Source: Methanothermobacter marburgensis str. Marburg (GTDB lineage: Archaea; Methanobacteriota; Methanobacteria; Methanobacteriales; Methanothermobacteraceae). From it: 32,000 bases of DNA. The notes beneath the pieces were generated by a model that worked only from the letters and a program-made list of their open reading frames with translations, did not search any database and was not told the DNA's origin. How positions within the stretch are numbered: the stretch's first letter is position 1; each line of letters begins with the position of its first letter. The DNA lies in the NCBI RefSeq assembly GCF_000145295.1, contig NC_014408.1, positions 900,001 through 932,000 of the forward strand, in the 5' to 3' direction. This document shows positions 3,204 to 26,232 of the stretch, piece by piece. The position numbers were made by a program, and so were the translations under genes.

Positions 3204-4328
3204 ATGAAATTCGCATGGCTGATGGCCCCCGACACCTACTGGGATGAGAAGAAGGCCTTCATAACAGCAGCCCTCGAATCAGGGATAGACCACATAGTGG
3301 ACACCTCTGATGCCGAGAGGATAAAGAAGCTTGGAAGCCTAACTCTGATATCACCTGAGGAAGAGGCAGACATAGTACTCATTGGAAAGGATGGGGAGGG
3401 CGACGGAACCCTGGAACTCCCCGAGACCCTTGATTACTCAAGGGACCTTGAAATGGCAGCTGAGCTTAAATCCGGGGGTAAGGAGGTTGCGGCCTACGTT
3501 GAGATAAGGAGCAAGGCCCACGAGGAACTTGCAAGGAAACTGGGCCGTATCGTGGACTACCTCATACTCGTGGGTGAGGACTGGAAGATCATCCCCCTTG
3601 AGAACATAATAGCGGATCTCCAGGAAGAGGACGTTAAACTGGTCGCGGCGGTGGCAGATGCCGATGAGGCGAGGGTTGCCCTTGAAACCCTTGAACATGG
3701 AACCGACGGTGTGCTCATAGAACCGGTGGACATCTCACAGATAAAGGCCATAGCAGAGCTCCTCGAGGAGATTGAAAGTGAAACCTATGAACTCAAGTCC
3801 GCCACGGTAACCAGGGTTGAGCCCCTGGGCTCCGGTGACAGGGTCTGCGTGGACACCTGCTCAATGATGGACGTCGGTGAGGGTATGCTGGTGGGCAGCT
3901 ACTCACAGGGTCTCTTCCTGGTGCACAGCGAGTCCCTTGAAAGCGAGTATGTGGCTTCAAGGCCCTTCCGCGTGAACGCCGGGCCTGTCCAGGCCTACGT
4001 CATGATACCCGGTGGCAGGACAAAGTACCTCTCTGAACTTGAAACCGGGGATGAGGTCCTTATCGTTGACCGGAATGGGAGGTCAAGGACCGCGGTTGTC
4101 GGCCGGGTTAAGATCGAGAAGAGGCCCCTGATGCTTGTTGAGGCAGAGTACGAGGGCGTGAAGGTGAGGACACTCCTGCAGAACGCCGAGACAATAAGGC
4201 TGGTGAATGATAGGGGTGAGCCTGTATCTGTGAGTGAGCTCAGTGAGGGTGATAAGGTACTTGTCTACTTTGAGGACTCTGCAAGGCACTTCGGTATGGC
4301 CATAACAGAGACCATAATCGAGAAATGA
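3204..4328 (+). CDS. aroB': 3-dehydroquinate synthase II (archaeal type)
   Basis: It starts MKFAWLMAP one nt after the aroA' stop. It is 374 aa, and its length and N-terminus are typical of the DHQ synthase II family. It is paired with aroA' as in other methanogens. Confidence 0.85.
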
Positions 4329-5314
4329 GTAGATTGGTGTTGAATCACCATCATCAATTCATCACCCCCAGATGGGATATTATGTACAGCGTGAGGCTCA
4401 TAACGCCCGGGGAAAAGGATGAAATCCTGGCTGAACTCTCCAGACTCAGACTCTTTGAGAGGAAGGCCAGCCTCCATGGGGCCTGCGTCAAGCTCCTCAC
4501 AGATGACGTGTCATTCAAGGAGGAGTGGGAGGACAACTTCAGATTCATGAGCGAAGATGTGAGGCCTCATGCAAAGGTATTTGCTGTGTCAGATGGTGGT
4601 GACCTGGAGGTTCTCTACGAGGCAAATTCAAAGACAGTCATAATCAAAAACTGTGACTACTATGGCTGGGTTAAGAGCATAGCCCTTGCAGCGGTTGCCG
4701 ACTTCTTTGAGGAGTACCATTCAGAGCACCGCCGCTACTCGGTCCATGGTTCAGCCCTCGACCGTGAAGGGGCTGGACTTGCGATCATAGGGCCGCCGGG
4801 TACAGGTAAGACGACCCTCACCTACGGTCTGCTCCTAGATGGGGCCTACAGTTATGTTTCAGATGACTGGTTCTTCACCCGCCTACTTGAGAACGGGGTC
4901 CTCGTTTATGCATCTGAGAAGAACTCCTACATCCGGGACGATATAGGGATGGTGTGGAAGGAGTACTCCTCCCTCCTGGAATCTGTGAAACTGGATGCCA
5001 GATCCAGGGGGGTTGCAGATGTTGGGATGCTCTTCGGGGGGCGGATAAGGGAGTCCACCACACTCAAAAGGGTCGTTCTCCTTGAGAGAAACCCTGATAA
5101 CCCCCCAATGAGGAGGCTGGATCCAGAGGAGGGTCTGAAGTACCTGCTGGAAAATGACTTCTGCAACCCCCACCAGCTTGTAAGGGATGAGAGAAAGATG
5201 GGGCTCCGCAGGAGGTTCTTCAGTGAACTCCTGGGCAGGGTGGAACTCCATATACTCAACACCATTGAAACACCGGCCAGGAGCCTTGAAAGGCTGAAAA
5301 AACTTGACAGGTAA
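4325..5314 (+). CDS. Uncharacterised HprK-C/PEPCK-fold P-loop protein
   Basis: HGSALDREGAGLAIIGPPGTGKTTLTYGLLLDG...YVSDDW matches the HPr kinase C-terminal pattern (HG..v...G.GvLi.G.sG.GKs...L...g..lv.DD). ATG 4325 overlaps the aroB' stop (ATGA). An alternative ATG lies at 4382. Confidence 0.6.
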   Translation: MSRLVLNHHHQFITPRWDIMYSVRLITPGEKDEILAELSRLRLFERKASLHGACVKLLTDDVSFKEEWEDNFRFMSEDVRPHAKVFAVSDGGDLEVLYEANSKTVIIKNCDYYGWVKSIALAAVADFFEEYHSEHRRYSVHGSALDREGAGLAIIGPPGTGKTTLTYGLLLDGAYSYVSDDWFFTRLLENGVLVYASEKNSYIRDDIGMVWKEYSSLLESVKLDARSRGVADVGMLFGGRIRESTTLKRVVLLERNPDNPPMRRLDPEEGLKYLLENDFCNPHQLVRDERKMGLRRRFFSELLGRVELHILNTIETPARSLERLKKLDR

Positions 5315-5332
5315 TACACGGAGGATCATGAA

Positions 5333-5887
5333 ATGAAGGTCAGGGCCTTCCTTGCAGTTGATGTTGACGATGAATTAAGGGAAAGGGTGTGTGAGATACA
5401 GGATATCCTGAGGGGCGCCGATGCCCAGATAAAGTTCGTTGAACCTGAGAACCTCCACTTCACCCTGAAATTCTTCGGTGATGTGGGTGAGGGCAAACTG
5501 AGGAGGATAAGGGGGATAGTTGAGGAAACCCTGAAGGGTTATGAACCATTCGACCTTCACGTGATGGGGGCAGGTGTCTTCCCCAGCCCACGCTACATCC
5601 GGGTGGTGTGGCTTGGTGTTGAAAACCCGGGGGTATTCTCAGAGCTGCAGAGGAACCTGGACATGGAATTTGCCAGGATAGGATTCCGGAAGGAAAGGGA
5701 GTACGTGCCCCACCTGACCATCGGGCGGGTCAAGGGTCCGAGGAACCGTGAGAAACTTGCAGCCCTGATAGATGAGCTTGAGAATGTGGACGCCGGCACC
5801 CTCAGGGTTGACAGGGTCTCACTTAAAAGGAGTGATCTCACACCGGAGGGACCCGTCTACAGTGACCTTGAGGTCTTCAGAATCTGA
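5333..5887 (+). CDS. thpR: 2H-phosphoesterase: RNA 2',3'-cyclic phosphodiesterase / 2'-5' RNA ligase family
   Basis: It has two H-x-T-x motifs (HFTLKF and HLTIGR) at the expected spacing. It is 184 aa. Confidence 0.85.
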   Translation: MKVRAFLAVDVDDELRERVCEIQDILRGADAQIKFVEPENLHFTLKFFGDVGEGKLRRIRGIVEETLKGYEPFDLHVMGAGVFPSPRYIRVVWLGVENPGVFSELQRNLDMEFARIGFRKEREYVPHLTIGRVKGPRNREKLAALIDELENVDAGTLRVDRVSLKRSDLTPEGPVYSDLEVFRI

Positions 5888-15087: not shown

Positions 15088-15975
15088 TCAGAAACTGTAG
15101 AGTTTGTTGAGGAGCTCAAGGGTCACGGACTCCATCTCCCTCTCATCCAGTTTCTGGAAGATTTCAACAGCCCCCCTGAAAGCTGATGCAACACCCTCAG
15201 GGTTGTTTTCTATGAATTCGAGGACCCCCATGAGGACCATTGCAACGGCAAGTCCCATGTCATTGTTTGTCTTTTTGAAAAGATCCTCGGCCTTCTTAAG
15301 GTACTTCCTTGACTCGCTGAAGTCCTCATTTTTAAGTGAATAAGCCCCCAGAAGCAGAAGCAATGACGCCTCTGTGGCTGTATCGCCAATATCCCTTGCA
15401 ATCTGGTAGGCCTCCCTTATCTGGGATATGGAGTCCTCATAGGACTGTGACTGGTACATTGTAAGTGATTCAACCCTTTCGACGAGTCTGTCCAGGAATG
15501 GCTCAATGGCACCGAGATCCACCTCTGCCATCTCAGCTTCAGCCTCCTCCTGGAGGCGGTTGAGGCTTGCTATATCTATGGCCTCCCTGATCTTTTCGAC
15601 TTCCTTGATCTTTTCCCTCAGATCCTTTCTGAGTGGTGAATTAACAGAGTTATAAATCCGGAGCGCCTCCTTAAAGTACTCCATTGCAGTTTTGATTTTT
15701 CTATCACTGAGGTAGACGTCACCCATGGAGTCAAGGGCAAAAGCCATGAGCTCCTCGTCATTCATGTCAGAGGCCACCTTGTAGGCCCTTTCAAGGTAAT
15801 CAAGTGCCTCACGGGTATCGCCCTCATCAGCATAAAAGGTGGCTATCCTTATGAGGGTGTCAAATTCCTCCTCAAGAAGTTCCTCAAGTTTGCGCAGGTA
15901 CTTCTCCAGTGATTCACCGCCCTCATCCCCCTTGAGAAAATCAAATATGCTCAGAATAATTAATATCATCTTCAC
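15088..15975 (-). CDS. TPR-repeat protein
   Basis: It has repeated 34-residue A/Y/L-patterned helical pairs (e.g. EALDYLERAYKVA, AMEYFKEALRIY, SRKYLKKAEDLF). A short hydrophobic N-terminus reads MILIILSIFDFL. The start is GTG 15975 or ATG 15969. Confidence 0.7.
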   Translation of the reverse strand: MKMILIILSIFDFLKGDEGGESLEKYLRKLEELLEEEFDTLIRIATFYADEGDTREALDYLERAYKVASDMNDEELMAFALDSMGDVYLSDRKIKTAMEYFKEALRIYNSVNSPLRKDLREKIKEVEKIREAIDIASLNRLQEEAEAEMAEVDLGAIEPFLDRLVERVESLTMYQSQSYEDSISQIREAYQIARDIGDTATEASLLLLLGAYSLKNEDFSESRKYLKKAEDLFKKTNNDMGLAVAMVLMGVLEFIENNPEGVASAFRGAVEIFQKLDEREMESVTLELLNKLYSF

Positions 15976-16090
15976 AGCCCCGGATGTTCTAATATAATAC
16001 TATGTGGATATTAATTTAAATAGATATCCGCTAAAGGGAATCTGACAGTTAAGCATCAGCCCATTGGAAATCTACAGCCAGAATCATCCC

Positions 16091-16118: not shown

Positions 16119-16805
16119 TCAGCCCACCAGAAGGCCCTGTTCACCTATCCTGTAGGGCGCCTCCCTGGTCCCTGAGGGGGTGCTGGAAGATATCATTGAG
16201 CCATCCATGCGGATATGCACATCGAAAAGTTCAGGGACCCCCTTCTCTATTTCCGGATCCGCAACCCCCTCTGTGTATGCCACCAGTGCTATTCCATTGG
16301 CCTCCCTCACACGGTTATTGTAGGCCTTGAGCACCCTCAGCACAAGCCTTGGGGGGTTGAATGCCAGGAGAATGGATGCGGAGTCAAAGGCTGAAAGAAA
16401 TATTCCAGATTCCTGGTAGAGGCTTCTTGTGGCTATACCAACCTTGACCATGAGGTCTGTGGTGTTCTGAAGGGCTGAATACCTTATGTTTCCTGAATCC
16501 TGGGGTTTAGCACCCCCAAGTCCGGTTGGAAGATCGATTACATGAAGCTTATCACTGAATGTCTGGATGAACCAGTTAAAGGCCATCGTGTTCCTCTGCA
16601 GGTCCCTGTAGCCGTATTCCGCCGCTATGAAAAGGCATGGGTTTCCGGCCTGGAGTCCTCTGTAGATGAACTCGGTTGCAAGTACGGATTTACCTGCCTT
16701 GGGGGGCCCCGTGACCAGCATGACTGAACCAGGCTCCAGTTCACCCAGGATATCATCAAGTCCAGCTATACCGGTGGTGTAGTTCTCACTCATGATATCC
16801 CTCAT
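16119..16805 (-). CDS. KaiC/RecA-superfamily ATPase (single-domain KaiC-like), paralog 3
   Basis: Features are GIAGLDDIL, Walker A GPPKAGKS and a Walker B-like SAFDSAS. It ends like other KaiC-like proteins (APYRIGEQGL). Its ATG overlaps the upstream stop (ATGA). Confidence 0.8.
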   Translation of the reverse strand: MRDIMSENYTTGIAGLDDILGELEPGSVMLVTGPPKAGKSVLATEFIYRGLQAGNPCLFIAAEYGYRDLQRNTMAFNWFIQTFSDKLHVIDLPTGLGGAKPQDSGNIRYSALQNTTDLMVKVGIATRSLYQESGIFLSAFDSASILLAFNPPRLVLRVLKAYNNRVREANGIALVAYTEGVADPEIEKGVPELFDVHIRMDGSMISSSTPSGTREAPYRIGEQGLLVG

Positions 16806-17497
16806 GGGTTGACCTTAAGGCCCTTATCGTCTATGGTGTAGGGGGCGCTGGCCCTTCCGACCCCTATCATGGCCTCAACTGTAAGTTCAGATCCATCGAG
16901 GTGTATTATGTTATCCACAACTGCCTTGAGCATGGTCTCAACCTTGGGGTCTGCTGATCCCTCGGTGTAGGTGACAATGGCGGTTCCACCGGCGTCCTTG
17001 ATCCTTATTATGTATGCTGTGAGGACTCGGACTATCAGCAGCTCATCATTGAATGCCATTAGCGTTGTGAGGGAGTCCAGGACAGACCTGAACATGCTGT
17101 AGCCTGCAGTTATGTTCCTTATGGCAACCCCCAGCTTCACCATTATATCGGTGGGGTTATGCACAGATGATGAGAGGTAGGTGTTGCCAGCATCAGATGC
17201 CGGCCCTGAGATGCTTGATATCGCGTCTATCACATATAGAAGTTCATTCTCCATGTAGCTCTCAGCATCCATACCAAGAACCTGCATGTTCCTCTTGAGG
17301 TCCGCCAGACCATAGTCTGTGGATATGTAGAGACAGGGTTCACCCCTTTCAGCACCCCCCGCCGTGAAACCATAACTGAATATGGATTTACCAACCTTCG
17401 GGGGCCCATAGACAAGTGTAACAGTATTTTCAGGGATCGCCCCTCCACCAATGAGTTCATCAAGACCCCTTATTCCTGAGGGAATTCTGACAATCAT
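16802..17497 (-). CDS. KaiC/RecA-superfamily ATPase (single-domain KaiC-like), paralog 2
   Basis: Features are GIRGLDELIGGGAIPENTVTLVYGPPKVGKS (Walker A), Walker B-like VLDSLT and a C-terminal APYTIDDKGL. Its ATG abuts the upstream TAA with no spacer. Confidence 0.8.
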   Translation of the reverse strand: MIVRIPSGIRGLDELIGGGAIPENTVTLVYGPPKVGKSIFSYGFTAGGAERGEPCLYISTDYGLADLKRNMQVLGMDAESYMENELLYVIDAISSISGPASDAGNTYLSSSVHNPTDIMVKLGVAIRNITAGYSMFRSVLDSLTTLMAFNDELLIVRVLTAYIIRIKDAGGTAIVTYTEGSADPKVETMLKAVVDNIIHLDGSELTVEAMIGVGRASAPYTIDDKGLKVNP

Positions 17498-18679
17498 TTA
17501 ACCACCATAGAGAAGTCCGAGGAGGGTTTCAAGTGCTTCATTCACTCCCCATCCCTCTTTAAGTGAAACAGGTATTATGGGGACATCACCTCCAAGCTTC
17601 ATCCTTGTTCTTATCTCATCAGGTGAGAGCGCGCCTGGAAGGTCCTGTTTATTGGCAACCACAACCTTAGGTATCGCCTCTGCCCTTGTCTTTCTTATCA
17701 TCTCCTTGGCCCTTGCGAAGGTTTCAGGTGCGGTTGAGTCCACCAGTATGAATGCCCCTACAGCCTCCCTTGAGAGGACATCCAGTATGAGGTCGAATCT
17801 CTCCTGTCCCGGTGTACCGAAGATATCCGCCATGAACCCCTTATACTCGAGGTGACCTATGTCCATTGCAATGGTTGTTGGGAACGCCGAGAGGGCCTTT
17901 CTATCAACCGAAACCGCCTTTGTGGATATTGACTTTACGAATGTGGATTTCCCTGAATTGTAGGGACCAGTCACCAGTATCTTGGGCACATAGACCTTAA
18001 CGCCACCGGGCTGTACAACAAAGAAGAGCACCATGGTATCAGGTGGACTGGACCAGTCAGAATGGGCAACCATGAACCCCTGCCCTATTATGACCCTCTC
18101 CTCAATGGTCCGCAGGTCAACGACACAGTCCATCAGTGATCTCAGTTTATCCATAAGCTCCCTTTCATAGTCCCACTCAGTGAAGAGGTAGACAATGTTG
18201 ACATCAAGTTCAGAGGCCCTCCTGTTCCATGTCTCTACAATTTCAAGGGTGTCACCGTTCCCCAGGTAATCTATTATTACAGAGAGACAGTTTATTACTC
18301 CCACACCGCCTGGAATATCCTCTATTGCACTCAGAACTGTTTCCTTTATCTCTGAGTAATCACTGACGGTGTAACGCTCCTCTGATGGCATTCCAAGGAA
18401 GGGTGAACTTCCATCAACAAAGAACATGTCCCCATTCTCAATGCGGGGCTCGATGTCCCAGCCATAGGACCTGAATTCATATATTATGCTCTCAGGTTCC
18501 TCAACGTTGGTGAATATAAACCCCTTCTCGCCCTCACCAAGTCGTCCGTTGAGCATCTGGTAACCGAATGCCTCATAGTCCACTCCGGGGGATGCCGAGA
18601 ACATCACAGAAGCCCCCTCCCTCACTCCACCGCCCAGGAGGTCGTCGAGTTTCGGGATGTAAGTCCTCTTCATGTTCAC
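17498..18679 (-). CDS. Fusion protein: P-loop-degenerate KaiC-like domain (aa 1-~228) + small MglA/Arf-like GTPase (aa ~232-393)
   Basis: The N-terminal half aligns by eye to the two downstream KaiC-like proteins ([18 protein letters not shown]...), but the Walker A position reads SASPGVDYE. The C-terminal half has G1 [10 protein letters not shown]3 [10 protein letters not shown]4 ANKQD and G5-like VSLK. The start is GTG 18679 or ATG 18673. Confidence 0.8.
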
Positions 18680-19053
18680 ATCTCCCTTAGAATTTCATCA
18701 ACCTGCGCTGCCCTTGAATCCATTTCAAAGAGCAGCAGACCCAGCTGTGCCTCCGGTTCTGCCAGGGCCGTGAATATGGCCTTCTCACCTGCAGGTTTGA
18801 GAATGATTATACCCTTCTCGGTTCTCACGGTTATCTCAGAAACGCCGCCAGTGTTCATCTGCCCTGATGCCGCCTCTGCGGCACCCATTATGGTTGAACA
18901 GAGGGCTGAGAATATCCTGGCATCAACATCTGGAGGTGTCCGTGCGTTTATAAGCAGCCCTTCCTTTGAAACAATACCCGCAGCCCTTATCTGACCGACC
19001 TGCATAAAAGCAGAGAGCACATCATCCAGTTTTTCCTTCTTTGTTTTGGCCAT
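18676..19053 (-). CDS. Roadblock/LC7 (MglB-like) domain protein
   Basis: About 125 aa with the typical pattern: [20 protein letters not shown]...[19 protein letters not shown]...[19 protein letters not shown] 19053 lies 5 nt after GGGGTG. Confidence 0.8.
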
Positions 19054-19111
19054 CAATACACCCCAGTGACTCGGTAACCGGTATCAGGAAGTGTCCCCGG
19101 CGATGAGTATT

Positions 19112-19143
19112 ACAGTTTAATTATGTTGTTAACCCTTTATATC
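19112..19143 (-). promoter_or_regulatory. Promoter region candidate for the Roadblock-GTPase-KaiC operon
   Basis: AT-rich TATA-like elements lie in the 113-nt gap: plus-strand CTTTATATC at 19134-19143, and ATAATTAAA on the minus strand. They are 60-90 nt upstream of ATG 19053. Confidence 0.35.
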
Positions 19144-19168
19144 AGTTTACATCTGGCCGCGGTGTAAT

Positions 19169-19735
19169 TTAAGGAGGAAGCCATACCGCCTCAGATGTTG
19201 TGAAAACGTAGTGATCTGAAAGGGCAGGGTTGTGGTAGGTGCCGGTCAGGTTCTCTGTCCTGAAGGTCCGTGAGATGGATCTCCTCATGCAGAAGTTCAC
19301 CCTGTCAGAGAGGGACTCCCTCAGGGAAGACTCCATAGGTGGGCCAGAGAGCCATGCCCTCAGACGGAACTTCCTCCGCCCGTATGTGCTGTTGTAGCCC
19401 TCATCAATCAGCTCAACCCTGAGAACCCTGACATCAGACGGCTGCAGGAGGACTGGTTTCTGATTCTGGTACTCCTCAAAGGTAACAGCAGGGTAGACTG
19501 CAAGGGTGTCAGTCGTAACCCCCTCCAGGGCCCCTGTTTTTGCAGCCGAATGGGCCGCCATGAGTTCAAGCTGCATTCCAGCCTGAACCGCTATGAGTGT
19601 GGCAATGAGGAGCCCGGCACCTGTAAGTAGCAGGTACTCAATGGGTACCTGCCCTCCGGTGCAGCCATAGATATGACCTGGCCTCAAATTTGTCACAGAT
19701 GAAGCCCAGGGACTCCTAGATACATCCAACCTCAA
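19169..19735 (-). CDS. Class III signal peptide (type IV pilin-like) protein
   Basis: It contains ...GCTGG|QVPIEYLLLTGAGLLIATLIAV, that is Gly, then Gln at +1, Glu at +5 and a hydrophobic helix. This is the archaeal prepilin-peptidase substrate pattern. Possible starts are TTG 19735 (overlapping the upstream stop), GTG 19696 or TTG 19687. Confidence 0.55.
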   Translation of the reverse strand: MRLDVSRSPWASSVTNLRPGHIYGCTGGQVPIEYLLLTGAGLLIATLIAVQAGMQLELMAAHSAAKTGALEGVTTDTLAVYPAVTFEEYQNQKPVLLQPSDVRVLRVELIDEGYNSTYGRRKFRLRAWLSGPPMESSLRESLSDRVNFCMRRSISRTFRTENLTGTYHNPALSDHYVFTTSEAVWLPP

Positions 19736-20175
19736 AGTCTCACCTCCGAGACCATGACAAGGGTCCTGTTATTCCTGCAGGTGTTCCTTATTGAGTATTT
19801 CCTGCCTGCCTCAAGGTTAATTGATGCAGGGGTACCTTTCGAGTCCACTATAAGAACATTGGACATATTTGAGAATCCCCTGTAACCATCCGCCCAGCCG
19901 TAGACTCCTGTTGAGTTGATCCTCAGCCTGTAAGCTGATGTGTGGTTGAGACGGGGAGGGAGCTCAACAACAACTTCACGGCCCGGACCCCCTGCAACTG
20001 CAAGGTCAACGGCACATGCCACATCATCCATGAGTATGCGAAGTTCAAGAAGTCCCTCCTCATGGTTAACACCATCAATCCTTGAACCTGCAATGGCAAC
20101 CATGGTGGATAAAAGCAGAACCATGAAAAAGGTTGATGTTACAGCGTCAGCTGCCAGAACACCATGTTTATCCAT
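19732..20175 (-). CDS. Putative class III signal peptide (pilin-like) protein
   Basis: From ATG 20175 it reads MDKHG|VLAADAVTSTFFMVLLLSTMVAIAG. This gives a short basic leader, Gly, an acidic residue at +5 and a hydrophobic helix. A TTTATATA box ends 23 nt upstream, which suggests a leaderless mRNA. Confidence 0.45.
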   Translation of the reverse strand: MDKHGVLAADAVTSTFFMVLLLSTMVAIAGSRIDGVNHEEGLLELRILMDDVACAVDLAVAGGPGREVVVELPPRLNHTSAYRLRINSTGVYGWADGYRGFSNMSNVLIVDSKGTPASINLEAGRKYSIRNTCRNNRTLVMVSEVRL

Positions 20176-20197: not shown

Positions 20198-20205
20198 TAT
20201 ATAAA
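20198..20205. promoter_or_regulatory. Shared, possibly bidirectional, TATA element between divergent genes
   Basis: The minus strand reads an exact TTTATATA 23 nt before ATG 20175. The plus strand reads TATATAAA 31-49 nt before ATG 20236/20254. Confidence 0.5.
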
Positions 20206-20253
20206 TATTACTAACTGGTGTATAGATATAGTTTGATGCACATAAACACTTAC

Positions 20254-20667
20254 ATGTATTCCCTAGTGGTCTTCACAGGGGGACCCCATAACTTCCATGA
20301 ACTTGAGGAATTTGTTGAGGATGCCGGTGGCCTTATAATCCAGAGGGACACATTCAGTGTTCACAGGGGCCAGTACTTCCTGAGAAATGAGGTCAGAGTC
20401 CTATGCATCATTCCCAGCGCAGATGAAGAAACACTCAGAGAGACCGCCCGCCGGATAAAGGGGGAAATAGAGGGCCTGGATGTTAATCAAGATGTCCTTG
20501 AGAGGATAAAGTCCCTTCTTGAGGTCTATGATAGGCTCGCAGAGGAACCCTCATGGACCCCCGGAGATGAGATTGTGGCCGATGACGGCCTCCTTGATGA
20601 GATGGTTGACATGGAACTCATTGAAAGAAGAAAGATGGGTCATAGGGTCGAGTACCGTCTGCTATGA
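20254..20667 (+). CDS. Hypothetical protein
   Basis: 137 aa from ATG 20254 (MYSLVVFTGGPHN...). Composition is coding-like and I recognise no motifs. An alternative ATG lies at 20236. Confidence 0.45.
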   Translation: MYSLVVFTGGPHNFHELEEFVEDAGGLIIQRDTFSVHRGQYFLRNEVRVLCIIPSADEETLRETARRIKGEIEGLDVNQDVLERIKSLLEVYDRLAEEPSWTPGDEIVADDGLLDEMVDMELIERRKMGHRVEYRLL

Positions 20668-23280: not shown

Positions 23281-23664
23281 TCAGAACGTGAAGAGCTTTA
23301 TGTGGGCCATTCTACCGCAGGCAATGAACCTCTCTGTGAGTTCCCTCACCCTTGAGGACTCTCCCTCAATTATGAAAAGTTCAAGGCACTTCCCATCCTT
23401 GAGGTGACTGTGTATCTGGGTGCTGATTATATCCTCATAGTCATGTTTTATCTCTGTGACCATGTCCTCGTCATTTCTTTTGTGTATGAGAAAGAGAACC
23501 GCGTTTATATCTCCCCTCAATTCCTGCATGTTTCTTTTCTCATCTATCAGAAGCCTTGCAGCAGCCCTTACAACATCGGATCTCCCTGAGAATCCCATCT
23601 CATCCCTAAGTGCATCTATCTCCGCAAGGAGCTTTTCACTGAGTGAAACACTTACCACAACCAT
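23281..23664 (-). CDS. nikR: NikR-family ribbon-helix-helix metal-responsive regulator
   Basis: An N-terminal RHH ([16 protein letters not shown]...[13 protein letters not shown]) is followed by a C-terminal metal-binding pattern, H-x13-HSH-x5-C (IKHDY...[13 protein letters not shown]). This parallels the NikR high-affinity site residues. Confidence 0.75.
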
Positions 23665-23687
23665 GGATCACTCTATTTTAATAAGAA

Positions 23688-23695
23688 TTTATATA
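23688..23695 (-). promoter_or_regulatory. TATA element candidate for nikR (leaderless geometry)
   Basis: The plus strand reads TTTATATA and the minus strand TATATAAA. The element lies 24 nt from ATG 23664. Confidence 0.4.
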
Positions 23696-23740
23696 CTTTA
23701 TGCTAAAATTTATTAAATTATCTTCCAAATATTAACAATT

Positions 23741-23748
23741 TTTATATG
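23741..23748 (+). promoter_or_regulatory. TATA box candidate for the metal ABC transporter operon
   Basis: TTTATATG ends 21 nt before ATG 23769. The geometry suggests a leaderless or near-leaderless transcript. Confidence 0.5.
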
Positions 23749-23768
23749 TTTTCAGGGACATAGATTGA

Positions 23769-24668
23769 ATGGGTGGTTGGATGGAAAGATGGAAGATAGG
23801 TGCAATTGCACTTATAACCATACTCTCGGTGGCTGGAATGTACGTCTTCACATCAGAGGCATCAGAGGAACCACATCAGGGAAAACTGATTGTTGCGGTT
23901 ACAATAATGCCCCAGAAGGAGTTTGTGGAGGCAGTTGCAGGGGATCGGGCAGAGGTGGTTGTCCTGGTGCCAGAGGGCGCCGATCCCCACACCTATGAAC
24001 CTGAACCAGAGACACTCAGGAGGGTGTCAGAGGCCAGAGCATACTTCATTGTTGGATCCGGCCTTGAATTCGAAAACCACTACCTTGATAAAATAAGGAC
24101 ACTTAACCCCAGTATGAGGATAATAAACACTTCAGAGGGGATAGAGTTTATTCCCTCAGCCATTGAAGATTCACATGAATCAGCCGAGAGCCCATACGAC
24201 CCCCATGTATGGACATCACCCAGAAACGCAATGGTGATGGTGAACAACACACTGAGGGGGCTCCAGGAGATTGACCCACAGCACAGCAGATACTACAGGG
24301 AAAACGCTGCGACCTACCTTGAAAGGCTGCATGAACTGGACATGAGGATCAGAATGGAGCTTAAAAACAGAACCGGTGAGAGCATACTGGTCTACCACCC
24401 CGCATGGGGCTACTTCTGCAGGGAATACGGGTTAAAACAGGTTGCAATTGAAAGGGAGGGAAAGGAACCCGGCCCGGCAACATTATCACTGATAATCCAG
24501 GAGGCCAGAAGAAAGAACATAAGGGTTGTAATTGCATCACCACAGTTCAGCAGGAGGAATGCAGAACTCATTGCAGACGAGATGGGGGCAAGGGTTGCCG
24601 TCGTGGACCCGCTGGGGGGAAACTACACCCGAAACATTGAGGAGATACTGAGGGCGCTTCAGGGGTGA
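23769..24668 (+). CDS. Metal (Zn/Mn/Ni-type) ABC transporter substrate-binding protein, ZnuA/TroA family
   Basis: It has an N-terminal signal/anchor (IGAIALITILSVAG) and the family motifs GADPHTYEP and YDPHVWTSP. Confidence 0.8.
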   Translation: MGGWMERWKIGAIALITILSVAGMYVFTSEASEEPHQGKLIVAVTIMPQKEFVEAVAGDRAEVVVLVPEGADPHTYEPEPETLRRVSEARAYFIVGSGLEFENHYLDKIRTLNPSMRIINTSEGIEFIPSAIEDSHESAESPYDPHVWTSPRNAMVMVNNTLRGLQEIDPQHSRYYRENAATYLERLHELDMRIRMELKNRTGESILVYHPAWGYFCREYGLKQVAIEREGKEPGPATLSLIIQEARRKNIRVVIASPQFSRRNAELIADEMGARVAVVDPLGGNYTRNIEEILRALQG

Positions 24669-25420
24669 TGGAAATGCTGGCGGTTGAGATGAGGGATGTC
24701 AATTACCACGTGAATGGCAGGCCCATACTTGAGGACATCAACCTTGAGGTACCTGAAGGTGAAATCCTTGCAGTGATCGGACCCAACGGTGGGGGTAAAA
24801 CAACACTACTGAAACTCATAACAGGACAGATAAGGCCATCCTCAGGGACTGTGAAGGTTCTGGGAAAAAATCCTGAGGATGCCAGGGAAAGGATTGGATA
24901 CCTCCCCCAGAGGAGTCACTTCAAAACAGATTTCCCCATAAACGTCCTCCAGACAGTCCTGATGGGCACATACAGGAGATTTGAGGCATATGCAGATGAT
25001 GATAGAAAAAGGGCCCTCAGATCCCTGGAAATGGTGGGGATGCTTGATTACAAGGATAGAAAAATTGGTGAGCTCTCAGGGGGAGAGCTGCAGAGGGTTT
25101 TCCTTGCAAGGGCCATTGTAAGGGACCCTGATCTTCTCCTCCTTGATGAGCCAACTGCAAGCGTTGACCCGGCCTTCAGGACCTCGTTCTACAACCTCAT
25201 GGATGACCTCAGGGAGAGGATGACGGTGATCCTGGTATCCCACGATATCGGGACGGTCACACAGCACGTGGACAGTGTGGCGTGCCTGAACCACAGGCTA
25301 TTCGTCCATGGGACAGTGGAGGAGGCCGTCAGCTGCCTTGAGGATGCATACGGCTGTCCAGTGGAACTCATCGCACATGGGATACCCCACAGGGTGCTCC
25401 ATGAACACCGGGAGGGGTGA
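24665..25420 (+). CDS. Metal ABC transporter ATP-binding protein (ZnuC-like)
   Basis: Motifs present are Walker [10 protein letters not shown], signature LSGGELQR, Walker B LLLLDEP and the H-loop SHD. The start overlaps the upstream stop. Confidence 0.9.
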
Positions 25421-26232
25421 TTGCCGTGCTTGAAATCCTCCAGTACCAGTTCATGAGGAACGCGGTGGTTGCAGCGGTACTTGTCAGCATAGCCTGCGGT
25501 ATAGTTGGAAGCTATGTTGTGACCAAGAGGATAGTCTCAATAAGCGGGGGTATATCACACGCAGCATTCGGTGGTGTGGGGCTGGGGTACCTACTCGGTG
25601 TGAATCCGGTGACGGCGGCCATCCCCTTCACCGTTGCAGCCGCTCTCCTTATGGGTAAAATCACGAGAAAAACAGATATAAGTGAGGATACCGCGATAGG
25701 CATGCTCTGGTCAGCCGGTATGGCTCTGGGTATACTGTTCGTGAACCTCAGCCCTGGTTATGCCCCGGATCTCTTCAGCTACCTCTTCGGCAACATCCTC
25801 ATGGTAAGCAGCACCGACCTCTGGACCATGCTCCTCCTTGACCTCATCATAATAGCAAGTGCCCTCCTTTTCAACAGGGAATTTGTGGCACTCTGCTTCG
25901 ATGAGGAGTACGCAGAGGTCCTTGGCGTGCCCGCTGACGCCTTTTACCTGTACCTGCTTTCACTGGTTGCCATAAGTGTCGTTGTGCTCATAAAGGCAGC
26001 GGGCATAATACTTGTGATGGCACTGCTCACGGTTCCAGCGGCTGTTGCAAGGGACTTCAGTACCGATATGGGGGACATCATGGTTAAGGCCTCAATCACA
26101 GGGATATTTGCAGCTATGCTGGGCCTATGGGTTTCCTACTGGTTCAATATCTCATCAGGGGCCGTCATAGTCCTTATACTCACACTTCTATTTGGCGCGG
26201 CCCGGATACTGAAGTCCCTGAGGAGTTCATAA
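25417..26232 (+). CDS. Metal ABC transporter permease (ZnuB-like, ABC-3 family)
   Basis: It is a 271-aa polytopic membrane protein. GTG 25417 overlaps the znuC-like stop. Confidence 0.85.

Follow-up and report, generated by a model that had tools for sequence, protein, structure and literature searches.

Small GTPases of the MglA type and their Roadblock partners are considered to be among the oldest GTPase switches, and KaiC-like ATPases have been proposed as the main hubs of signalling in archaea, where signal sensing and transmission are poorly understood and both protein classes have hardly been studied. MglB is the Roadblock GTPase-activating protein (GAP) of MglA (PMC4316618), and a survey of the MglA family defined its groups 2–5 by a GTPGQ motif in place of DxxGQ and by a threonine replacing the arginine finger (Wuichet & Sogaard-Andersen 2014, PMC4316618). 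Group 4 was nearly exclusive to methanogenic Euryarchaeota and its genes had no conserved neighbours, and sequences exceeding 240 aa in length were left out of the survey (PMC4316618). The actinobacterial conservon combines a Roadblock protein and a GTPGQ GTPase with an ATP-using sensor kinase (PMC4316618), and archaeal KaiC-like ATPases and inactivated KaiC domains have been put forward as signalling hubs in work to which PMC5847659 refers. Here we describe a candidate signalling module encoded by a four-gene block at positions 16119–19056 on the minus strand of a 32,000-nt stretch of the Methanothermobacter marburgensis Marburg genome (the window, to which all coordinates refer), consisting of a Roadblock/LC7 gene, a gene for a fusion of an inactivated KaiC-like domain with a small GTPase, and two genes for KaiC-like ATPases, designated K2 and K3.

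A preliminary description of the window, made from its sequence, had placed four minus-strand open reading frames (ORFs) at these coordinates in the order Roadblock, dead KaiC::GTPase, KaiC, KaiC, and both the ORFs and their order were confirmed. The Roadblock/LC7 protein (125 aa, 18676–19053) is followed by the fusion protein, of which the inactivated KaiC-like domain (iKaiC) is encoded at 17990–18673 and the GTPase domain, stop codon included, at 17498–17989, and then by K2 (231 aa, 16802–17497) and K3 (228 aa, 16119–16805). Exact matches are present in the databases (ADL58570.1 for the Roadblock protein, ADL58569, ADL58568.1 for K2, and WP_238523341 for K3, or ADL58567 for its 224-aa version) under generic names, namely GTP-binding protein, ATPase domain-containing protein, RAD55 family ATPase and roadblock/LC7 domain-containing protein. 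The junctions are as originally described, with the Roadblock stop codon (TGA, 18678–18676) overlapping a GTG at 18679–18677, the stop codon of the fusion (TAA, 17500–17498) abutting the ATG of K2 (17497–17495), and the ATG of K3 (16805–16803) overlapping the stop codon of K2 (TGA, 16804–16802), but the GTG at 18679 is probably not the start of the fusion gene. The true start is probably the ATG at 18673, 2 nt past the Roadblock stop, because the Shine-Dalgarno sequence GGGAG (18686–18682) lies 8 nt from this ATG and 2 nt from the GTG, and because the resulting 391 aa is the length of the fusion in database orthologues. The Roadblock ORF reaches a TTG at 19056, and translation probably starts at the ATG at 19053, which is preceded by a Shine-Dalgarno-like GGGGTG (19064–19059). 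For K3, the GenBank annotation starts at the ATG at 16793 (224 aa) and that of RefSeq at 16805. These corrections leave the tight packing of the genes unchanged.

The assignment of Roadblock, small GTPase and KaiC-like domains was borne out by profile searches. The Roadblock protein matched Robl_LC7 (PF03259) over 90 of the 91 profile positions (2.3e-23, 82.2 bits versus a cutoff of 23), and its matches among solved structures were the Roadblock proteins 9jue (8.5e-13) and 7f8m (1.4e-12) and CvnB5 (3leq, 2.9e-6). The N-terminal half of the fusion (residues 5–231) matched the Pfam KaiC family (PF06745; 7e-16, 58.7 bits versus a cutoff of 26.6), and an AlphaFold2 model built from a 49-sequence alignment was of high predicted quality (predicted local distance difference test score 93, predicted template modelling score 0.87), with a single continuous strand (residues 226–237) spanning the domain boundary. 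The modelled N-terminal half superposed on PH0284, a KaiC-like ATPase of Pyrococcus (2dr3), with a template modelling score of 0.87 and a root mean square deviation of 2.2 Å. In HMMER alignments the Walker A sequence GTGKT of KaiC is opposite PGVDYEA in the fusion, and the consensus GxxxxGK[ST] is absent from this domain, which has SPGVDYEA with VDY in place of GK[ST]. Across an alignment of 318 full-length fusion proteins, which underlies all family-wide motif counts given here, the position of the Walker A lysine is Glu or Asp in 299, within a motif P-G-[VI]-[ED]-x-[ED]-x-F, and this constancy indicates a conserved replacement and not decay. The domain has kept the KaiC fold and, judged from these motifs, is predicted to be a pseudo-ATPase, inactive as an ATPase, so that its earlier designation as a dead KaiC domain holds; it shares 20% identity with K2.

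The C-terminal half of the fusion (residues 233–386) matched Pfam families of the Arf/Ras/Roc range (6e-11 to 6e-7, with Arf at 6e-11 and Ras at 4e-9), and the NCBIfam small_GTP model scored above its cutoff (6e-15). Its nucleotide-binding motifs are nearly invariant: the G1 lysine (K244) is present in 316 of the 318 fusions, the paired G2 threonines in 303 (T268) and 310 (T269), and the G4 motif N-K-Q-D in approximately 300, while the G3 motif GTPGQ is made up of G288 (315), T289 (305), P290 (313), G291 (311) and Q292 (300). Both the Thr-Thr of G2, which corresponds to the replacement of the arginine finger, and the GTPGQ of G3 are marks of MglA groups 2–5, and support the proposal that the fusion and the Roadblock protein form a GTPase-Roadblock pair of the MglA/MglB type. 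With 391 aa and two domains, the fusion exceeds the limit set for the MglA family (a single domain of no more than 240 aa), and since longer sequences were excluded from the MglA survey, the fusion family escaped it.

K2 and K3 also matched Pfam KaiC (2.6e-32, 112.5 bits and 4.8e-18, 65.8 bits, respectively). The Walker A motif of K2, GPPK[TV]GKS, has its lysine in 73 of the 75 orthologues adjoining a fusion gene, as has the Walker B aspartate (73/75), and an Asp is found at a position resembling RecA E96 in 72 of the 75. In K3 the Walker A lysine and the Walker B aspartate are present in all 42 orthologues, and both proteins therefore look competent for nucleotide binding, as far as motifs can tell. 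K3 is 39% identical to K2 over its full length (E 2e-50), and is a tandem duplicate of K2 specific to Methanobacteriaceae. All three KaiC-like sequences scored far below the cutoffs of the NCBIfam equivalogs for KaiC, ArlH and RadB and of the archaeal KaiC subfamily models.

A scan of one genome per GTDB species with a 12-sequence alignment gave 566 relatives of the fusion, and 104 proteins below 1e-30 were found among 1.84 billion cluster representatives, many of them full-length and with identities down to 27%; the fusion is a widespread archaeal family and not peculiar to the M. marburgensis genome. We labelled the ORFs of 82 related loci (given L numbers below) by phmmer with the proteins of the window as queries. 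Among GTDB loci in which the flanks could be judged, a Roadblock gene was adjacent to the fusion gene in 67 of 71, thus displaying the coupling to an MglA-family GTPase gene that is typical of MglB-type proteins, a KaiC-like gene was adjacent in 71 of 73, and both were adjacent in 59 of 65, an arrangement which is far beyond chance. This adjacent core of Roadblock, fusion and KaiC genes was found in Methanobacteriaceae, anaerobic methanotrophic archaea of the ANME-2 group and other Methanosarcinales, Methanoperedens, Methanomassiliicoccales, Thermoplasmata and Hydrothermarchaeota. The Methanobacteriaceae arrangement reads Roadblock, fusion, KaiC, KaiC, mostly with a pair of tandem pilin-like genes, U2 and U1, before it and a gene for a tetratricopeptide repeat (TPR) protein after it. 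Roadblock, fusion and a single KaiC gene were found in ANME-2 and other Methanosarcinales, in one Methanomassiliicoccales genome and in one Thermoplasmata genome. Methanoperedens, Methanosarcinaceae and a sizeable set of uncultured Thermoplasmata have the permuted order KaiC, fusion, Roadblock, in some cases with a second Roadblock gene. In the sole Methanocellales locus examined, KaiC and fusion genes are adjacent and no Roadblock gene follows. The maintenance of the trio despite the change in order is strong evidence for a functional unit, and the existence of two gene orders rules out passive synteny. Linkage is thus conserved well outside the Methanobacteriales, and the four-gene unit of the preliminary description has to be narrowed: Roadblock, fusion and one KaiC gene, represented by K2, form the universal core, and the second KaiC gene is a duplicate particular to Methanobacteriaceae.

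The cluster is also present in Methanothermobacter thermautotrophicus Delta H (AAB85100/AAB85101) and M. wolfeii, where it was detected by cluster look-ups although the genome scan had missed it. Some Methanobacteriaceae have two copies of the cluster (L032 and L044 on OY969932.1, and L006 and L009 in UBA587), and the second copies L043 and L044 in Methanobacterium consist of the four-gene block without U2/U1 or the TPR gene. An extra KaiC-like gene (approximately 218–243 aa, with DUF7090/DUF7504 matches) lies between U1 and the Roadblock gene in many Methanobacterium loci (for instance L001, 6845–7501); it is missing in Methanothermobacter, which has only a 112-nt gap at this place.

Genes for sensor proteins adjoin the trio in several lineages. 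In ANME-2, a 999-aa protein with seven Pfam PAS domains is encoded right up to the start of the Roadblock gene (L055, 2615–5614). Proteins that appear to be homologous to it, encoded by ANME-2 loci L048 (3020–5614) and L064 (51–2045), likewise end at the Roadblock start, and the C-terminal part of the ANME-2 PAS protein (approximately 110 residues) has a weak resemblance to STAS domains (E 0.02). The Hydrothermarchaeota locus comprises a pair of KaiC genes and the fusion together with genes for a GAF-PAS-V4R protein, Roadblock, a V4R-like protein and another small GTPase; the last of these is a single-domain protein (L088, 5662–6150) with GTPSR at G3, hence without the catalytic Gln, and may be a hydrolysis-deficient paralogue. 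In loci of Thermoplasmata and Methanomassiliicoccales, genes for a V4R protein and a Ras-like GTPase separate Roadblock from fusion. The flanking genes of the second Methanobacterium copy L044, and likewise of L043, encode PAS histidine kinases and LCM-type methyltransferases. In several ANME-2c/Methanogaster loci (L074, L079, L082 and L060, at approximately 4400–5600) two conserved Cys-rich proteins of approximately 150 and 170 aa are encoded directly 5′ of the Roadblock gene; we considered whether these are V4R domains, which was supported neither by Pfam, where no family matched, nor by BLASTP.

On the other side of the block, the TPR gene is located 3′ of the second KaiC gene in most Methanobacteriaceae loci, with gaps of 1–30 nt in L004, L018, L021, L025 and L037. 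In M. marburgensis it encodes a 295-aa protein (15088–15975, minus strand; Pfam TPR_12, 1e-18), a probable accessory protein or adaptor. An uncultured Thermoplasmata genome encodes a 569-aa fusion of Zn-ribbon, TPR and KaiC domains (L087, 7707–9416; KaiC 2e-36). This connects the KaiC components with the TPR protein encoded 3′ of K3, and the functional unit is therefore probably larger than four genes and includes the TPR protein. The L087 cluster that encodes this TPR-KaiC fusion also has the KaiC-GTPase fusion, a pair of Roadblock genes and another three KaiC-like genes.

When set against described systems, the locus shares with MglA/MglB of Myxococcus xanthus and Thermus thermophilus the position of a gene for a Ras-superfamily GTPase beside a Roadblock/LC7 gene, a G3 motif with Pro-Gly-Gln and without the usual Asp, and the logic of a GTPase switch regulated by a Roadblock dimer. 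It differs in having the group 2–5 type of GTPase (G3 GTPGQ, G2 Thr-Thr, no intrinsic arginine finger), which is nearest to Arf/Arl among solved structures and is fused to a dead KaiC domain, and in having KaiC-like ATPases as obligatory neighbours. The conservon CvnA-D and the mycobacterial Mfp operons likewise comprise four genes, with a Roadblock protein (CvnB), a GTPGQ GTPase (CvnD) and an ATP-using signalling protein, and the PAS histidine kinases beside the paralogous Methanobacterium copies add to the likeness. In the archaeal cluster, however, the partner has the KaiC/RecA fold and is not a membrane-bound, histidine-kinase-like CvnA, and the pseudo-ATPase domain gives the GTPase a covalent connection to the ATPase family; neither a CvnA-type sensor kinase nor CvnC (DUF742) was found among the genes of the window or in the related loci examined. 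By this comparison the conservon would be the closest operon-level analogue, with a KaiC-fold ATPase replacing the kinase. K2, K3 and the N-terminal domain of the fusion share the fold of the archaeal single-domain KaiC-like hubs (ArlH/FlaH, CirA and PH0284), and the fusion of inactivated KaiC to other signalling domains is a known theme, to which PMC5847659 refers, whereas here a small GTPase is the fused partner and Roadblock the fixed neighbour. The Ragulator-Rag complex and related Roadblock/longin-GTPase platforms of eukaryotes and Asgard archaea also pair Roadblock-fold proteins with small GTPases, which we take as an analogy only, and V4R (TRAPPC3-like) proteins and extra Ras-like GTPases occur in the clusters of Thermoplasmata and Hydrothermarchaeota; the present clusters have no Roadblock-GTPase fusion and no membrane-targeting element, and their KaiC-like ATPases are without counterpart in those platforms. 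Finally, the RecA-like KaiC fold and the Walker motifs of K2 and K3 are shared with cyanobacterial KaiABC, whereas the tandem CI-CII arrangement is lacking in K2 and K3, as is the Glu-Glu pair, and no KaiA or KaiB family member is encoded among the genes of the window.

Taken together, we consider with moderate confidence that the cluster encodes a cytoplasmic signalling module in which a Roadblock-regulated GTPase switch is docked on KaiC-type ATPases via a pseudo-ATPase domain. The MglA-type small GTPase would be the switch, and a Roadblock/LC7 dimer would bind it and control GTP hydrolysis or nucleotide exchange, acting, by comparison with MglB and CvnB, as GAP, guanine nucleotide exchange factor or platform. 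The third component would be formed by one or two KaiC-like ATPases of the RecA fold with retained ATP-binding motifs. The pseudo-ATPase domain would most likely dock the GTPase onto these, whether as part of a mixed oligomer or as a constant partner, and ATP binding, hydrolysis or autophosphorylation by the KaiC-like proteins would be coupled to the GTP/GDP state of the switch. Input may come, in other lineages, from the PAS/GAF/V4R sensors or PAS histidine kinases encoded next door, and in Methanobacteriaceae the TPR protein would probably relay the state of the switch through protein-protein contact. In a more specific version, which we regard as possible but distinctly less probable, the GTPase is a fixed subunit of a mixed KaiC-type ring, in which the GTP and ATP cycles are mechanically coupled and regulated by the Roadblock protein. 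The interpretation given in the preliminary description, of a GTPase switch whose state is read or set by a hetero-oligomeric RecA-like ring, is supported in part, and that ring is conjecture.

Several observations weigh against the signalling module as set out above. The Glu-Glu catalytic pair of KaiC is missing in both K2 and K3, which have T-D-Y (T-D-Y-G) and A-E-Y instead, and these proteins may therefore bind ATP without turning it over. A profile of the GTPase domain matched Arf/Arl first among solved structures (8oul, 3e-21) and MglA was absent from the best 60 matches, in a comparison where the solved MglA structures are of group 1 and no structure of groups 2–5 appeared; since Arf/Arl structures are the closest, the MglA-type label refers to motifs and partner and not to overall similarity. 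The whole region is syntenic in Methanobacteriaceae, and the adjacency of the TPR gene and of U1/U2 in that family alone therefore carries little weight. None of the genes in the window is a sensor gene adjoining the block, and none of the clusters examined showed a DNA-binding domain or an output of the enzyme type. Domain identities, motif states, conserved linkage and sensor neighbours are direct observations, while every contact between the proteins, the direction that signals take and the output are what we infer from them.

A possible output is suggested by the genes upstream of the block, U1 (188 aa, 19169–19735) and U2 (147 aa from the ATG at 20175, 19732–20175), which are on the same strand and have no Pfam family above threshold. 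In the 28–29 orthologues of U1/U2 in Methanobacteriaceae the N-terminus combines MDxxG with an acidic +5 residue and a hydrophobic helix, a common feature resembling the type IV prepilin signal, and the module may thus regulate the assembly or placement of type IV pilus-like filaments built from U2/U1. The transcription signals are compatible with such a connection. The gap 5′ of the Roadblock gene (19057–19168, minus strand), described earlier as AT-rich, is so only mildly, with a GC content of 0.446 versus 0.50–0.52 in the genes. It contains no TATA-like box within one mismatch of TTTAWATA and no T5 run, so that a gap is present upstream of the block, as had been noted, but an own promoter may be lacking. 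A perfect archaeal TATA box, TTTATATA, is located at 20205–20198, 22 nt 5′ of the ATG of U2, and this short distance suggests a leaderless or near-leaderless transcript. Given this TATA box before U2 and the absence of TATA-like boxes and T5 runs between U1 and Roadblock, the transcript may start at U2 and run over six genes. Downstream, the oligo-T run seen previously is real (TTTTT, 16101–16097); with the exception of a T5 within U2, no other T5 occurs on the minus strand from the start of the U2 coding sequence to the TPR gene, which has its own TATA-like box at 16020–16013, and the run is likely to mark the end of the transcript. A scan for sigma-70 promoters and hairpin terminators, a model which is not applicable to archaea, gave counts no higher than in shuffled sequence.

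Parallels with filament systems exist in the control of pilus-driven motility by MglA/MglB in Myxococcus and in the KaiC-like ArlH of the archaellum motor, and the Hydrothermarchaeota cluster has a gene for a T2SSE-type ATPase in its vicinity. According to Makarova et al. (2016), pilus loci often include KaiC-family ATPases and Roadblock proteins (arCOG02603), and tandem pilin genes often lie outside such loci, which makes a filament link possible. However, the match of U1/U2 to the Pfam Class_IIIsignal family is not significant (E 0.13, 12.7 bits versus 23.7), no pilus ATPase, TadC or prepilin peptidase is encoded among the genes of the window, and U1 and Roadblock lie between 117 and >1000 nt apart in different loci, with other genes intervening. 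The U2-U1 pair is conserved 5′ of just one cluster copy in the syntenic region of Methanobacteriaceae, and is missing from the paralogous copies and from every locus examined outside this family. A module dedicated to pilus regulation would be one particular form of the signalling module, with U2/U1 as its whole basis, and we consider it unlikely.

The alternatives that assign a different role to the proteins themselves are less probable again. From their matches to the Pfam model and to solved structures of KaiC, K2 and K3 could in principle act like the cyanobacterial protein as a phosphorylation-based timer or slow oscillator whose output is the GTPase; but they are single-domain proteins without the Glu-Glu pair, the circadian KaiC equivalog scored 76 versus a cutoff of 408, and the window has no KaiA or KaiB/thioredoxin-like gene, making this very unlikely. 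At a still lower probability we place an NTP-driven factor for the assembly or maturation of a methanogen enzyme, for example methyl-coenzyme M reductase or a metalloenzyme. The concentration of the family in methanogens and methane-oxidising archaea would fit such a role, as would a short gene resembling MCR_C/methanogenesis marker 7 close by on the plus strand (20218–20667), but this gene matches only the first 63 positions of MCR_C and was seen to be adjacent only within the syntenic Methanobacteriaceae, and the trio is also present in uncultured Thermoplasmata and Hydrothermarchaeota, where it is surrounded by sensors, additional GTPases and TPR proteins and not by enzyme genes. Least probable of all is that K2 and K3 are recombination mediators of the RadB/Rad55 type to which the GTPase and Roadblock genes are unrelated. 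This would agree with the RefSeq name RAD55 family ATPase and with weak RecA/RadB matches, yet the RadB equivalogs scored far below their cutoffs (31.8 versus 278 and 23.1 versus 172 for K2, 16.1 versus 278 for K3), KaiC is the best Pfam family, and the linkage to fusion and Roadblock extends across phyla in two gene orders with sensor-domain proteins, not DNA repair proteins, as neighbours.

We also note three other genes or gene groups of the window. The plus-strand gene at 20218–20667 encodes a 149-aa protein corresponding to approximately the first 63 positions of MCR_C/methanogenesis marker 7 (Pfam 6e-8; NCBIfam 2e-7, far below cutoff); Methanobacterium alkalithermotolerans has it in the corresponding position (163 aa, L001). 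A 329-aa protein encoded at 4325–5314 on the plus strand, between the genes for 3-dehydroquinate synthase II and a LigT-like protein, has weak matches to the C-terminal domain of HPr kinase (8.5e-6, below cutoff) and to AAA_25. At 23281–26232, a gene for a NikR-like regulator and a ZnuA/ABC/ABC-3 operon for metal uptake are divergently oriented, which is ordinary and is also syntenic in Methanobacterium (L002).

The component families and the idea of KaiC-like hubs with inactivated KaiC domains were already known. Neither a description of the trio nor an experiment on it was found in the searchable literature; an earlier computational mention is possible. None of the terms searched for was present in the text supplements of the pilus paper of Makarova et al. 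(2016). The preliminary description had stated that no experimentally characterised system of this composition was known, and the searchable literature yielded none; of the three outcomes that would have told against it, namely wrong domain assignments, no linkage in other genomes and an existing characterisation of the cluster, none occurred.

The cluster, which has an ancient look, joins the two themes of GTPase switches and KaiC-like hubs, both covalently and by a linkage conserved across several archaeal phyla, and the trio fills a gap left by the survey of MglA group 4, in which no proteins of >240 aa were included and no conserved neighbours were seen. Since M. marburgensis and M. thermautotrophicus Delta H are thermophilic model methanogens with stable proteins, its biochemistry is directly testable. 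If the mixed ring is true, it would be a device distinct from two-component systems, the conservon and the Kai clock, and one that would be widespread in methanogens and methane-oxidising archaea, fed by PAS/GAF/V4R sensors.

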